A stretch of DNA of 24,000 bases, taken from the NCBI GenBank assembly GCA_942491575.1, contig CALOBT010000025.1, forward strand, positions 2,334,321 through 2,358,320. The letters are read 5' to 3'. Shown here in pieces: positions 9,556 to 12,541 of this stretch. Below the pieces are notes generated by a model. That model was not told where the DNA came from and ran no database searches. It was given only the letters and a program-made list of their open reading frames with translations. Every line of letters begins with the position of its first letter. Position 1 is the stretch's first letter. Source of the stretch: an uncultured Spirochaetota bacterium. Its GTDB lineage: Bacteria > Spirochaetota > UBA4802 > UBA5550. Made by a program: the position numbers and the translations under genes.

Positions 9556-9605
9556 ACCGACAGTCTTCCCATTACATAAAAAAACAAAAAAACATTTAAA
9601 TGGTT

Positions 9606-9637
9606 GACCGTTAATCGTATATTTACGATAAACGGTC
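9606..9637. promoter_or_regulatory. 32-nt imperfect palindrome (candidate ArsR operator) overlapping a candidate promoter for the arsR-hgcAB operon
   Basis: GACCGTTAATCGTATA | TTTACGATAAACGGTC, with 14 of 16 positions symmetric. TTGACC (9604-9609), a 17-nt spacer and GATAAA (9627-9632) overlap it. The ATG at 9640 follows immediately. An A-rich tract lies upstream (9578-9597). Confidence 0.5.
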
Positions 9638-9639
9638 AT

Positions 9640-9987
9640 ATGAACAGAACAGTACATAATAAATTCAGCCGAAAACAGCAGGATGCCGCCATCTTTGCAA
9701 AGGCACTCTCCCATCCCGCACGCATATCCATTCTCCTTATGCTGGCCAAACAGAAAACCTGTATCTGCGGTGATATGGTGGAACAGCTTCCCATGGCACA
9801 GTCAACGGTTTCCCAGCACCTGAAAGAACTGAAAGAGGCGGGACTTATTATGGGAGAGATTGACGGACCACGAATCTGCTACTGCCTGAATCATGAGATT
9901 TTCAATCAATTCAGGGGCATCCTGGATGAACTACTATTGGAAATAGATTTACACAGAGGTAAAGAATCCAATGACTGCTGCGAGTAA
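9640..9987 (+). CDS. arsR: ArsR/SmtB-family metalloregulator (metalloid-type CxC site)
   Basis: wHTH segment ALSHPARISILLMLAKQKTCICGDMVEQLPMAQSTVSQHLKELKEAGLI. CIC occupies the position of the ELCVCDL As(III) site of classical ArsR. There is an extra C-terminal CC (NDCCE). The ORF track starts at TTG 9604; I prefer ATG 9640 because 9604-9637 looks like promoter/operator. Confidence 0.85.
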   Translation: MNRTVHNKFSRKQQDAAIFAKALSHPARISILLMLAKQKTCICGDMVEQLPMAQSTVSQHLKELKEAGLIMGEIDGPRICYCLNHEIFNQFRGILDELLLEIDLHRGKESNDCCE

Positions 9988-11122
9988 ACCGACACTGATT
10001 CCCGTATCCCCGGTGATTTCACAATGCGGCTGCGGAACGGGGACCGGTAAAAATAACTTCAAGTGGAGCAATAAACTTCCCCCCTATATAATCGAAGAAT
10101 ATCATTCACCTTCGGGACCACTCCCACGCATAACAGGCGCCATTACATGGCGGGACCGCCTCGGTACCTTCCGGTCGCGAACAAGCAATTTCCGGATGAA
10201 ATACAAGGTAAAACCGGGTCTCTACGCACTGGGTAAACCTGATGAAAACTCCCATGTGATAGTTACCGCTAATTATAAAATGTCCTTTGACGCTGTACGG
10301 AAAAATCTCGCACGGCATGATGCCTGGATACTGGTCCTTGACACCGCCGGAATCAATGTCTGGTGTGCCGCCGGAAAAGGATCCTTCGGTTCCGCTGAGC
10401 TGATTAAAAAAATCGATGAGACGGGCATCTCCAGTATTGTCACTCACCGCGGGATAGTTGTTCCCCAGCTGGGAGCCCCAGGAATCAACAGCTCCCTTGT
10501 TAAAAATGCAACTGGCTTTCGTGTCCACTTCGGGCCGGTACTGGCTCGCGATCTTCCGGCTTATCTCTCAAACAATATGACAGCTGAAGCCTGCATGAGG
10601 ATTGTCCCCTTTACGATGTGGGACCGACTCGTCCTGACGCCGATGGAACTGAATCCTGCATTAAAAAAATTCATACCTTTGGCACTTTTACTTTTTGCCT
10701 TCTTCGGATTGACCGCCGAGGGAATCATATTCAGAGAGGCAATCACCGGGGGGGGTACATTTATTCTGCTGATGGCCCTTGCGGTAGCAACAGGGGCTAT
10801 TATCGTACCTTTGATATTGCCATTCATTCCCTTTCGAAGTTTTTCCCTGAAGGGGACATTTGCGGGACTCGTTCTCCTGGGTTTAATGCTGTTAGCGGGA
10901 TTCCATCGTGAGATGTCACCCCTGGTTGCTGCGGCTGCGGCTATTATGACAACAGTTATCGCATCCTACCTTGCGCTGATGTTTACGGGAACGACCACCT
11001 TTACTAATATTTCCGGAGTAAAAAAGGAGATGCGTTATGCCATACCGGCATATGCGGTTCTCTCTGCCTTTTCAGTAATTTTTCTGATAATCTTTAAATT
11101 ACAACAGGGAGGCCTGTTATGA
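9971..11122 (+). CDS. hgcA: HgcA, corrinoid-binding mercury-methylation protein (CFeSP-like domain + C-terminal TM domain)
   Basis: 383 aa. The diagnostic cap-helix motif GINVWCAAGKG is at nt 10355-10378 for N-V-W-C-A-A-G-K, with Cys at residue 132. Flanking regions are HgcA-like (PGLYALGKPDENSHVIVTANYKMSFDAVRKNL; VVPQLGAPGI). About five C-terminal TM helices follow. The ATG overlaps the arsR stop by 17 nt. It is followed by hgcB with an ATGA overlap. Confidence 0.85.
   Translation: MTAASKPTLIPVSPVISQCGCGTGTGKNNFKWSNKLPPYIIEEYHSPSGPLPRITGAITWRDRLGTFRSRTSNFRMKYKVKPGLYALGKPDENSHVIVTANYKMSFDAVRKNLARHDAWILVLDTAGINVWCAAGKGSFGSAELIKKIDETGISSIVTHRGIVVPQLGAPGINSSLVKNATGFRVHFGPVLARDLPAYLSNNMTAEACMRIVPFTMWDRLVLTPMELNPALKKFIPLALLLFAFFGLTAEGIIFREAITGGGTFILLMALAVATGAIIVPLILPFIPFRSFSLKGTFAGLVLLGLMLLAGFHREMSPLVAAAAAIMTTVIASYLALMFTGTTTFTNISGVKKEMRYAIPAYAVLSAFSVIFLIIFKLQQGGLL
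10355..10378 (+). other. hgcA: HgcA cap-helix signature N-V-W-C-A-A-G-K (proposed Co-ligating Cys)
   Basis: Codons aat gtc tgg tgt gcc gcc gga aaa, read directly in the hgcA frame. Confidence 0.85.
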
Positions 11123-11409
11123 AATATATGAAAAATGTCGCCACCCTTCGATATGATTCTTCAAAATGTACCGGCTGCGGGAGATGCACCGAAGTATGTC
11201 CGCGTGGTGTTTTTATCATGAAAGAAAAAAGGGCCGCCATCACCGATGGCGATCTCTGTATAGAATGCGGCGCCTGTGCCCTGAATTGTTCATTCAATGC
11301 CATAAACGTTGAAGCCGGCGTAGGCTGCGCCCAGGCGGTGCTCAACAGTATGATTTATGGCGGCGAACCGAACTGTGATTGCTCCGGAGAAGGAAGTTCA
11401 TGTTGCTGA
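11119..11409 (+). CDS. hgcB: HgcB, 2x[4Fe-4S] ferredoxin partner of HgcA
   Basis: 96 aa. Two CX2CX2CX3CP-type motifs (CTGCGRCTEVCP; CIECGACALNC). The Cys-rich tail ends in vicinal Cys (...CDCSGEGSSCC*), as in characterised HgcB. GGGAGG SD. ATGA start/stop overlap with hgcA. Confidence 0.85.
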   Translation: MKYMKNVATLRYDSSKCTGCGRCTEVCPRGVFIMKEKRAAITDGDLCIECGACALNCSFNAINVEAGVGCAQAVLNSMIYGGEPNCDCSGEGSSCC

Positions 11410-11419
11410 GAGTTGCTCA

Positions 11420-12541
11420 ATGAATGTCAAGGCTGTAAATTCTGAACTAAAACGACACTGTGACAGAATTCGGAGGGGCTGCGTAGAATGCAACTCCTGT
11501 GTCAATGACTGTGCCTTTCTCCGTGAATACGGCAATCCATTCCAGATTGCATCTTCATGTTCATACGACAGCATTGCAGATCTCAACCGCGGCTATGAAT
11601 GCAACCTCTGCAGTCTATGTACCGCAGTATGTCCTGAAAATATTGACCCTGCATCCCTCTTTCTGGAAATGCGCAGGGAGACGGTGCGAAGGGGCCAGAA
11701 ACTGAATCACAGGCACCGTGTTCTCCTCGGTTACGAAAGCAGGGGAAAGGCGGGGCGCTACCGTTTTGACGCAGTGACCCCTGAAACGAAACGGATTTTC
11801 TTTCCAGGCTGCACCCTCCCCGGGACCAGGCCGCGCCGGACCTGGGAAATCTTTCAGTACCTGAGAGAAGAAAATCCGTCAACGGGAATGGTTCTCGACT
11901 GCTGCTCAAAGCCATCACATGACCTTGGTCATGAAGACAGGTTTAATAAATCTTTCTACTCAATGCAGAGACGGCTGACTGATACCGGAATCTCAGAAGT
12001 CATTGTTGCCTGCCCTAACTGCTACAATGTCTTTCGCCGTTACGGCAATCTCCTCAAGGTAACCTCCGTCTATGAACACCTTGCAGACTCCCCCACCCAG
12101 GTCATTACAGACTCAGAAGAGGAAATGTTTCTTCACTATCCCTGTGCCATACGCTTCGACAAAAAGGTATATCAGGCAATAGATACAATTATTGAAAAGA
12201 GTGACCTGCGGATAAAAAGAAATCACAGGGGAGCGGATAAGACCTACTGCTGCGGTGAGGGGGGAGGCGTATACCTCTTCAGAAAGGACCTGGTCGCCGG
12301 ATGGATAAAAAGAAATCTGGAGATAGCGGAAGACCGACCCATCATCACTGCATGTGCGGGATGCACCAATATGTTCGGATCAAAAACAGAAACAAGACAC
12401 ATCCTTGACCTTGTATTCGAACCGGAAAAATCAGCAAAGGGGAATGCCCCTGCGAGCAAAACCCCCTTTACTTACCTGAACAGACTTTTCTTAAGGCAGA
12501 AATTAAAACGTTTTTTCAAAAAACAGATGTTGCGGAAGTAA
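11420..12541 (+). CDS. Fe-S oxidoreductase with 2x[4Fe-4S] ferredoxin motifs and two CCG (cysteine-rich) domains (HdrD/GlpC/LutA-like)
   Basis: CVECNSCVNDC and CNLCSLCTAVCPENI, followed by CCG-type domains (FFPGC...DCCSKP...ACPNC; HYPC...YCCGEGGG...ACAGC). The start is ambiguous. ATG 11420 lies 10 nt after the hgcB stop and is my preference. ATG 11357 (ORF track) would overlap hgcB by 53 nt. Confidence 0.8.
   Translation: MNVKAVNSELKRHCDRIRRGCVECNSCVNDCAFLREYGNPFQIASSCSYDSIADLNRGYECNLCSLCTAVCPENIDPASLFLEMRRETVRRGQKLNHRHRVLLGYESRGKAGRYRFDAVTPETKRIFFPGCTLPGTRPRRTWEIFQYLREENPSTGMVLDCCSKPSHDLGHEDRFNKSFYSMQRRLTDTGISEVIVACPNCYNVFRRYGNLLKVTSVYEHLADSPTQVITDSEEEMFLHYPCAIRFDKKVYQAIDTIIEKSDLRIKRNHRGADKTYCCGEGGGVYLFRKDLVAGWIKRNLEIAEDRPIITACAGCTNMFGSKTETRHILDLVFEPEKSAKGNAPASKTPFTYLNRLFLRQKLKRFFKKQMLRK

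Follow-up and report, generated by a model that had tools for sequence, protein, structure and literature searches.

The locus described here is probably an arsenic-regulated mercury-methylation operon, in which arsR, encoding a predicted arsenic-responsive repressor, overlaps the first gene of the pair hgcA and hgcB. It lies in a 24,000-nucleotide stretch of DNA from an uncultured Spirochaetota bacterium, which we refer to as the window. The general form, an ArsR-led hgcAB next to acr3 and arsC, has already been published, Spirochaetes included, and our locus is a well-supported, largely ordinary example of it. The features are as follows, with the evidence for each in parentheses.

9604..9638, + strand: predicted promoter and operator of the arsR-hgcAB operon (inverted repeat, conserved motif, pattern-based hexamers)
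9640..9987, + strand: arsR, 115-aa ArArsR-type predicted As(III)/MAs(III)-responsive repressor (HMMs, NCBI call, Cys positions)
9971..11122, + strand: hgcA, 383-aa corrinoid protein (HMM, motif, hydropathy, AlphaFold2, fold match)
11119..11409, + strand: hgcB, 96-aa 2x[4Fe-4S] ferredoxin (HMM, Cys positions)
11420..12541, + strand: fourth gene, 373-aa HdrD/GlpC-like iron-sulfur protein (Pfam CCG, Fer4_8; homologue alignment)
12544..17866, - strand: convergent ars operon of eight genes (profile matches), consisting of the following
17534-17866, - strand: arsR2, first in transcription order
16184-17515, - strand: arsP (ArsP_1, 232.7 bits)
15915-16148, - strand: thioredoxin_3-like gene (77-aa ORF)
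15438-15896, - strand: thioredoxin gene
14711-15430, - strand: CcdA/DsbD-like gene
13573-14625, - strand: acr3 (ACR3, 454.8 bits; cut-off 282.8)
13027-13434, - strand: bacteriohemerythrin gene (148.5 bits; cut-off 84)
12544-13002, - strand: arsC (ArsC, Trx type, 139 bits, below the cut-off of 174)

We analysed the regulator together with its upstream region. In NCBI's annotation of this exact genome, arsR starts at ATG 9640 and encodes 115 aa. The original prediction had placed its left boundary at a TTG at 9604, which is a start only in the mechanical list of open reading frames; as we read the sequence, this TTG is part of a -35 hexamer and not the arsR start codon. At the DNA level, ten related loci conserve the -35 box TTGACC (9604-9609), and a -10-like GATAAA (9627-9632) ends 7 nt before the arsR ATG; we infer from their pattern that these are the promoter hexamers of arsR-hgcAB. 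The promoter scan's own preference was a different, weaker pair, TTTAAA/TATATT. The inverted repeat has arms at 9605-9619 and 9624-9638 (15 nt each, 93% complementary), with the operator core TAATCGTA-tatt-TACGATAA at 9612-9631. By chance, 0.05 occurrences of this core motif would be expected in the window; there is one. Ten hgcAB-linked loci have TTGAC together with ATCGTA-N4-TACGAT, conserved in front of arsR, and among 75 metagenome loci from this ArsR subfamily, 62 contain the core. The palindrome matches the DNase-footprinted and EMSA-tested site TTTTATCGTAATATTGCGATCACAATC of ArArsR (PMC11868830).

The ArsR protein scores 47.7 bits with HTH_5 and 71.9 bits with NF033788 (cut-off 55). It contains six cysteines in three pairs, Cys41/Cys43 (codons at 9760-9768), Cys80/Cys82 (9877-9885) and Cys113/Cys114 (9976-9981), all of them invariant in nine hgcAB-linked homologues; the three pairs are all present in 64 of 79 metagenome homologues. 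An R773-type (type 1) ArsR was rejected: in place of its CxCxxC motif (Cys32/34/37) we find C41-I-C43-G-D-M46, and the third cysteine is absent because position +5 after the first cysteine of the CxC is Met46. The original prediction was right that an ArsR-family gene of an arsenic-sensing kind heads the operon with overlapping frames, but its reason, the retained CxC, is not right in detail. In ArArsR, from the arsRMC operon of Arsenicibacter rosenii SM-1, mutagenesis mapped As(III) to Cys41, Cys80 and Cys82, with Cys43 dispensable, and MAs(III) to Cys41 and Cys82, and the terminal CC plays no role (Zhang et al. 2025, PMC11868830). By its Cys positions, its operator and its arsRMC-type relatives, the regulator here appears to be of this ArArsR type (the fourth type). 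Its metagenome relatives, 80 ArsRs with 49-71% identity, head arsM/arsC/acr3 operons and mostly those of arsM: of 65 sampled loci of close relatives, 47 have arsM as the gene next downstream, and only one has hgcAB directly downstream. On sequence grounds, an arsenic-operon repressor is coupled to hgcAB at this locus.

The regulator might instead sense a signal other than arsenic, such as S-adenosylhomocysteine (SAH), Hg(II) or another thiophilic metal, its likeness to arsenic sensors being ancestral baggage. We consider this unlikely, although it is the strongest of the alternatives. Arsenic may indeed not be the only or the main effector, because ArsR2 of Pseudodesulfovibrio mercurii ND132 responds both to arsenic and to SAH; HgcAB uses S-adenosylmethionine (SAM) as methyl donor and releases SAH. 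The six cysteines also exceed what As(III) requires, and they include a conserved terminal pair that is dispensable in ArArsR. However, the locus retains the operator and all three cysteines mapped as As(III) ligands, the nearest ArsR relatives regulate arsM, arsC and acr3, and an ars operon adjoins the locus. We retain an arsenic-responsive repressor as the preferred reading.

We next consider the extent of the transcription unit. The hgcA ATG (9971) lies inside arsR, whose stop codon at 9985-9987 gives an overlap of 17 nt, the hgcA stop and the hgcB start share an ATGA at 11119-11122, and 10 nt separate the end of hgcB at 11409 from the next ATG at 11420; all of these junctions had been predicted correctly. 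A Shine-Dalgarno sequence of hgcB, AGGGAGG, is located at ~11105-11111. Both the 17-nt and the 4-nt overlaps are conserved in three syntenic relatives (L082, L083 and L084), where arsR-hgcA-hgcB is followed directly by a convergent arsC; L082 and L083 also have the same ars-operon order, without the hemerythrin. No terminator-like site was found on the + strand from 9300 to 13600, and the last stop codon of the ars operon is 2 nt from that of the fourth gene. The fourth gene is absent from the three syntenic relatives, no homologue of it was found near hgcAB in the hgcAB loci of 80 other genomes, and it was not found at the other ArArsR-type loci examined. The conserved unit is therefore arsR-hgcA-hgcB. 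The predicted "four-gene operon" is right in that a fourth ORF follows hgcB after 10 nt, but appears to overstate the unit; a single transcript is nevertheless predicted, given the overlapping frames, a gap of only 10 nt and no terminator-like site on the + strand.

The fourth gene may alternatively start at 11357, which was the choice of one gene caller in L001, and would then overlap hgcB by 53 nt. Its product matches Pfam CCG (49.2 bits) and Fer4_8 and contains two CX2CX2CX3C [4Fe-4S] motifs and two CCG (CXnCCXnCXXC) domains, as do HdrD/GlpC/DsrK-type CCG proteins. The protein is full length, and each motif cysteine (42/45/48/52, 82/85/88/92, 152/182/183/219/222 and 263/298/299/333/336, numbered from start 11357) falls in an invariant or at least 90% conserved column of a 14-sequence alignment (its own sequence and 13 homologues). 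The top-scoring NCBIfam model, NF045663 (pyridine nucleotide-disulfide oxidoreductase/dicluster-binding protein), was rejected, with 195 bits against a cut-off of 530 and a match to model positions 278-664 of 759; this family has an N-terminal flavoprotein domain, which the fourth protein lacks. Among its 1759 homologues, many carry a VTT/DedA domain as a C-terminal fusion, whereas the protein here has neither a membrane partner nor a VTT fusion.

CCG proteins (HdrB/HdrD) are disulfide or electron-transfer modules, and HgcAB needs reducing equivalents from some source. The fourth protein, with all its Fe-S and CCG cysteines intact and its gene 10 nt downstream with no terminator between, could be a working partner that passes electrons to HgcB or reduces the disulfide of its vicinal cysteines, making a true four-gene functional unit. 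We judge this slightly less probable than a non-arsenic effector, since the gene is missing from the syntenic and the 80 other hgcAB loci, its homologues occur in unrelated, variable contexts (pst, rhodanese, amino-acid and lipid genes), and many of them carry the VTT/DedA membrane domain. We favor a lineage-specific addition, whose link to hgcAB is putative. A broader proposal, and a still more doubtful one, is that hgcAB is a working component of an arsenite/methylarsenite regulon and not a mercury system. The pair would have been recruited repeatedly behind the ArsR subfamily that otherwise drives arsM and would have an arsenic-related native substrate or benefit (under anoxia, for instance, As(III)/MAs(III) might be methylated through the corrinoid or handled in some other way), with the HdrD-like protein as the missing source of reducing equivalents in this lineage.

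HgcA scores 381.6 bits with HgcA_corrinoid NF040863 (cut-off 275), and HgcB scores 117.4 bits with HgcB_ferredoxin NF040864 (cut-off 99), so that both lie above the cut-offs of NCBI's curated models. The HgcA motif GINVWCAAGKG occupies residues 127-137 (nt 10349-10381) and contains the cap-helix Cys132; within it, NVWCAAGK (129-136) is invariant across 26 HgcA homologues. An N-terminal MTAAxKP is common to relatives at ~59% identity. By hydropathy, residues 230 to 375 contain five hydrophobic segments (membrane domain at ~10637-11107), and the AlphaFold2 model contains five long helices at 223-246, 254-281, 291-314, 317-340 and 348-379 (mean pLDDT 80.9). In a fold comparison, the deposited HgcAB model 9a0b_A ranks first, aligned over 325 columns. 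Chains of CFeSP, whose large subunit (AcsC/CdhE) has the corrinoid-binding Rossmann-like domain in common with HgcA, align over only ~128 columns; CFeSP lacks the cap-helix Cys, the membrane domain and the HgcB partner, all three of which are present here. HgcB has CX2CX2CX3C motifs at residues 17 and 47, a Cys70 that we take to be the equivalent of ND132 Cys73, and the C-terminal Cys95-Cys96 (SSCC); five homologues keep the cluster cysteines, Cys70 and Cys95/96 without exception. The original prediction of a 383-aa HgcA with GINVWCAAGKG and a multi-helix C-terminal membrane domain, distinct from CFeSP, and of a 96-aa dicluster HgcB ending in SSCC, is thus confirmed in each of these points. 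That the pair is a non-methylating paralogue, HgcAB-like or CFeSP-like, which merely resembles hgcAB is highly improbable: the corrinoid domain fold and Pfam family (CdhD) are common with CFeSP, but the sister models both fail on HgcA (HgcAB_like, 191.3 bits against 285; CdhE/AcsC, 73.4 against 306), the Cys-containing cap helix takes the place of the CFeSP sequence SVLTAWAAGKF, and there are a separate membrane domain and a separate hgcB with its terminal CC. By these sequence criteria, hgcA/hgcB at 9971-11409 is a genuine pair, neither CFeSP nor of the fused HgcAB-like type.

These findings suggest the following mechanism. Without trivalent arsenicals, an ArsR dimer (9640-9987) would occupy the palindrome at 9605-9638. 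We propose that transcription of arsR-hgcA-hgcB is blocked in this state because both boxes of ArsR's own promoter, -35 and -10, share nucleotides with the palindrome; the fourth gene, likely a recent passenger, is probably blocked too because no terminator lies in between. By analogy with ArArsR, the repressor would be released by As(III), bound by Cys41, Cys80 and Cys82, or by methylarsenite, bound by Cys41 and Cys82. The arsR-hgcAB mRNA probably has little or no leader, given a pattern-based start, and the 17-nt and 4-nt frame overlaps may couple translation of arsR, hgcA and hgcB. As in the HgcAB biochemistry of another organism, HgcA would be a membrane-anchored corrinoid protein with Cys132 as cobalt ligand, and the cobalt would be reduced by HgcB, a ferredoxin with two clusters; Co(I) would receive a methyl group from SAM, which would then pass to Hg(II).

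The locus bears on two questions of mercury biogeochemistry, the control of hgcAB expression and the reason for the genes' existence. It joins two separate literatures, as the hgcAB-linked ArsR appears to be of the same type as ArArsR, for which ligands and operator have been mapped; the ArArsR paper (PMC11868830) does not mention hgcAB, and among the papers searched, none has both terms. From the likeness to ArArsR we predict that As(III) and methylarsenite induce hgcAB by way of Cys41/80/82 and the palindrome at 9605-9638. The nearest ArsR relatives normally control arsM, whose product, an arsenite methyltransferase, likewise depends on SAM and has a soft metalloid as its substrate. Publications already cover co-transcription of arsR with hgcAB, the response to arsenic, acr3/arsC as neighbours and examples in Spirochaetes; because hgcAB was already known to associate with arsR and ars genes in general, what is gained is mechanistic detail and not a new principle. 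In published work, the hgcAB transcript level is a poor predictor of methylation rate.

We compared the locus to known systems. [quoted passage not shown] In both loci, an ArsR-family gene is directly upstream of hgcAB and co-oriented, and ND132 ArsR2 Cys47/49/86/88 (CxC...CxC) have the same spacing as Cys41/43/80/82 here, a published pattern from which homology at the subfamily level is likely. In ND132, by contrast, hgcAB has no ars genes next to it, and a gene number (DND132_1055) intervenes. In our locus the pair has an ars operon and an additional Fe-S gene for neighbours, and the reading frames of arsR and hgcA overlap by 17 nt.

ArArsR and the regulator here are both encoded by the first gene of their operon and autoregulated, as predicted in our case. 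Their cysteines are at 41, 43, 80, 82, 107 and 108 in ArArsR and at 41, 43, 80, 82, 113 and 114 here, and the ArArsR operator core TTATCGTA-N4-TGCGAT corresponds to TAATCGTA-N4-TACGAT, a sequence match that makes ours a predicted site. The cargo is arsM-arsC in the ArArsR operon and hgcAB here, our host lies outside the Cytophagaceae/Flavobacteriaceae, and the promoter here has a sigma-70-like TTGAC box, unlike the ArArsR system. Finally, hgcAB neighbourhoods with acr3, arsC, arsM and arsR have been published, with Spirochaete examples noted (McDaniel 2020 Fig. 6; Peterson 2025). These loci and ours have in common an arsR-like gene in front of hgcAB, with acr3 and an arsC of the Trx type flanking the pair. 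Unlike in the published neighbourhoods, the ars genes here are convergent and form a separate operon with its own, different ArsR, whereas at loci L164, L158 and L059 hgcAB lies inside an ars operon on the same strand.

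As judged from its sequence, the window carries an hgcAB pair under an arsenic-type repressor. The locus and its surroundings are laid out as follows.

Features of the locus
5721-9555 (+): 1025-aa hybrid sensor kinase (7TMR-DISM, HisKA/HATPase, receiver, second LytS-type His_kinase domain) and LytTR response regulator
9640-9987 (+): arsR
9971-11122 (+): hgcA, 383 aa
11119-11409 (+): hgcB, 96 aa
11420-12541 (+): fourth gene, HdrD-like Fe-S/CCG protein
12434-12453 (-): terminator-like hairpin and T-run, about 90 nt past the arsC stop, within the 3' end of the fourth gene
12544-17866 (-): convergent ars operon (second arsR, arsP, thioredoxin genes, CcdA-like gene, acr3, bacteriohemerythrin gene, arsC)
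13027-13434 (-): bacteriohemerythrin gene, between arsC and acr3 (148.5 bits, cut-off 84)
17534-17914 (-): second ArsR, 110 aa and of a different type (lone Cys37 in helix alpha-3, plus Cys73, Cys82, Cys89 and terminal Cys107-108), with a separate TTGACA box at 17914-17909 and a near-palindrome of different sequence, TATTTGGCCAAAATA, at 17898-17884

HgcA contains GINVWCAAGKG at residues 127-137, with Cys132 within it, and five hydrophobic segments spanning residues 230 to 375. In an AlphaFold2 model built from 26 homologues (mean pLDDT 80.9), an alpha/beta domain is followed by five long helices (223-246, 254-281, 291-314, 317-340 and 348-379). The closest PDB fold match of this model is the deposited HgcAB model 9a0b_A (325 aligned columns), whereas CFeSP chains align over only ~128 columns, in the corrinoid domain. 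HgcB has two CX2CX2CX3C motifs, Cys70 and an SSCC C terminus. Both proteins score above their curated HMM cut-offs (HgcA, 381.6 bits versus 275; HgcB, 117.4 versus 99), and on HgcA the fused HgcAB-like model (191.3 versus 285) and the CFeSP γ-subunit model (73.4 versus 306) stay below theirs. Motifs, helices and HMM scores thus agree with the original prediction, which had recognized the pair from the corrinoid motif and membrane domain of the larger protein and the ferredoxin ending in SSCC, and an ORF map returns the same positions for hgcA, hgcB and the fourth gene. Together, these features identify 9971-11409 as a real hgcAB pair at the sequence level. Its nearest named relatives are from Spirochaetota and Leptospirales MAGs; horizontal transfer is common for hgcAB.

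Directly 5' of arsR lies an inverted repeat, TAATCGTA-tatt-TACGATAA, whose arms (9605-9619 and 9624-9638) are 93% complementary. A generic promoter scan favoured another, weaker hexamer pair; the elements conserved 5' of arsR in ten hgcAB-linked loci are TTGAC and then (T/A)TATCGTA-N4-T(A/G)CGATA(A/T)A, with the arsR ATG 6-13 nt downstream of a -10-like GATAAA or GATATA. The window has a single copy of the operator core motif, with 0.05 copies expected by chance. We propose that the conserved elements form a sigma-70-type promoter in which the repressor site would cover the spacer and the -10 box. From the position of this promoter, the arsR mRNA would have little or no leader. The start first proposed for arsR, TTG 9604, has to be abandoned: the TTG falls within the conserved TTGAC read as the -35 box, conservation of the "codons" before ATG 9640 is at the DNA and not the protein level, and the NCBI record of the source genome holds the exact 115-aa ArsR beginning at ATG 9640.

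We compared this regulator to ArArsR from the arsRMC operon of Arsenicibacter rosenii SM-1, for which Zhang et al. 2025 (PMC11868830) introduced a fourth type among the arsenic repressors. The window ArsR has cysteines at positions 41, 43, 80, 82, 113 and 114, and none of the six varies among nine hgcAB-linked homologues, which come from Spirochaetota-labelled MAGs and syntenic contigs. [quoted passage not shown] By published positions, Cys41/43/80/82 and a terminal Cys pair are thus common to both proteins. The footprinted and gel-shifted ArArsR site, TTTTATCGTAATATTGCGATCACAATC (PMC11868830), is the same element as the window palindrome, which is the predicted operator here. Cysteine set and operator uphold the earlier assignment to a metalloid-type ArsR, but by another As(III) site than the CxC it had named: an R773-type (CxCxxC) site can be rejected because Met46 takes the place of its third cysteine. 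Among the papers searched, none names both ArArsR and hgcA, so that placing an hgcAB-linked regulator and operator in the ArArsR type may add a minor connection not made before.

To see what this subfamily controls, we scanned metagenome contigs with an ArsR alignment. The 80 loci retained (49-71% identity) are the best 80 of a longer list, and the fractions are thus indicative only.

Gene contexts of arsR among the best 80 loci
Loci with at least 700 nt 3' of arsR: 65
First recognised downstream gene arsM: 47 of 65
First downstream gene arsC: 4 of 65
First downstream gene acr3: 3 of 65
First downstream gene arsN: 2 of 65
First downstream gene hgcA: 1 of 65
Nothing recognised in the 700 nt 3' of arsR: 8 of 65
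hgcA within 3.5 kb: 4
Operator core upstream of arsR: 62 of 75
ArsR with each of the three Cys pairs: 64 of 79

Assignments as arsM and arsN2 clear the NCBIfam cut-offs. Some metagenome loci, such as L164, have the order arsR-arsM-arsN-x-arsC-hgcA-hgcB on one strand. In L164 (601-4896), L158 (4001-8304) and L159 (4001-8300), an ArArsR-type arsR heads same-strand arsM, arsN and arsC, followed by hgcA-hgcB; arsM and hgcAB thus occur together in a single ars operon, and hgcAB is no replacement for arsM there. In a neighbor-joining tree of ArsR relatives, hgcA-linked and arsM-linked regulators interleave, but the proteins are short and the tree carries no bootstrap, so that it yields no count of recruitment events. 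The picture suggested by these sequences is that of an ars-operon repressor coupled to hgcAB, rather than of an hgcAB-specific regulator.

Three contigs (L082, L083 and L084) are syntenic with the window and encode HgcA proteins 57-59% identical to the one found here. L082 has the order hybrid histidine kinase, LytTR response regulator, arsR, hgcA, hgcB, then convergent arsC, acr3, CcdA-like gene, thioredoxins, arsP and a second arsR; L083 and L084 reach a contig edge inside or just past the syntenic stretch, L084 stopping after arsC. The kinase/LytTR pair, which ends ~50 nt upstream of the arsR promoter, is syntenic in L082 and L084. The junctions in the window read as originally claimed: the arsR stop (9985-9987) lies 17 nt beyond the hgcA ATG (9971), hgcA and hgcB overlap by ATGA, and 10 nt separate the hgcB stop from the fourth-gene ATG (11420). 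Both overlaps (17 and 4 nt) recur in L082. Positions 9971-9987 are dual-coding: one frame gives the Cys-Cys conserved at the ArsR C terminus, the other the HgcA N terminus MTAAxKP, likewise conserved, and this arrangement is preserved in L082 and L084. The hemerythrin gene is absent from L082 and L083 (L084 is too short to tell), which makes it a second lineage-specific insertion beside the fourth gene.

The fourth gene is not a truncated pseudogene, as it aligns over its full length to stand-alone homologues with every Fe-S and CCG cysteine conserved. Nor is it a usual ars gene, being present in 0 of the 80 ArArsR-type metagenome loci, with six homologues in heterogeneous, unrelated neighbourhoods. 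As a conserved hgcAB companion it is likewise rejected, with zero tblastn matches in 80 genome and four metagenome hgcAB loci and in L082-L084. Because it is missing from the syntenic relatives and the other loci examined, the conserved unit on this comparison is arsR-hgcA-hgcB, and the fourth gene appears as a lineage-specific addition; of the translationally coupled four-gene operon proposed before, the arsR/hgcA/hgcB overlaps hold, but the fourth gene falls outside the conserved unit. It looks functional and, lying 10 nt from hgcB with no terminator-like site in between, is probably co-transcribed. On the plus strand, a scan detected an intrinsic terminator neither between these genes nor 3' of the last of them (the total count of terminator-like sites is not above shuffled expectation), and no cobalamin riboswitch or other known RNA matched at Rfam gathering thresholds in the whole window. 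The stop codons of the convergent operons are only 2 nt apart, and their transcripts may thus overlap. Neither translation of the fourth gene (starts 11357 and 11420) is in a 15-billion-protein collection that has HgcA, HgcB and ArsR of the same NCBI genome; in the NCBI record, the gene may be annotated from another start or as a pseudogene. Its family gave 1759 matches, many with a fused C-terminal VTT/DedA membrane domain. About half of the top homologues (P0128, P0168, P0202 and others; ~615 aa) are such VTT/DedA (TVP38/TMEM64) fusions, an uncharacterised family found in Nitrospirota, Thermodesulfovibrionales and Desulfuromonas. In L168 (3665-7684) and L169 (3218-7237), a homologue is convergent to a corrinoid methyltransferase-like cluster (URO-D with B12-binding domain, HGD-D gene, BcrAD/BadFG ATPase), a single case that may be coincidence.

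The HgcAB methyl donor is SAM, and the source of reducing equivalents is unknown according to the literature. That hgcAB here serves arsenic metabolism, with the HdrD-like protein as its reductant, strikes us as quite improbable. Our preferred reading, hgcAB under an ars-type repressor, makes a specific prediction on regulation that is easy to test and leaves the current picture unchanged, as an ArsR-led hgcAB locus is of a kind already described. In drawn neighbourhoods, acr3 and arsC flank hgcAB (McDaniel et al. 2020), and a lake study associated the presence of arsR with reduced transcription of hgcA (Peterson et al. 2025). In Pseudodesulfovibrio, an arsR-like gene 5' of hgcAB is reported to be co-transcribed with it and in ND132 responds to arsenic and SAH, in line with the precedent that the original prediction had cited; the same paper names Spirochaetes, Nitrospira, Bacteroidetes and others as groups in which ArsR-family genes accompany hgcAB, at times together with arsC, arsB or arsM. 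Compared by published positions, Cys47/49/86/88 of ND132 ArsR2 are spaced as in the window ArsR.
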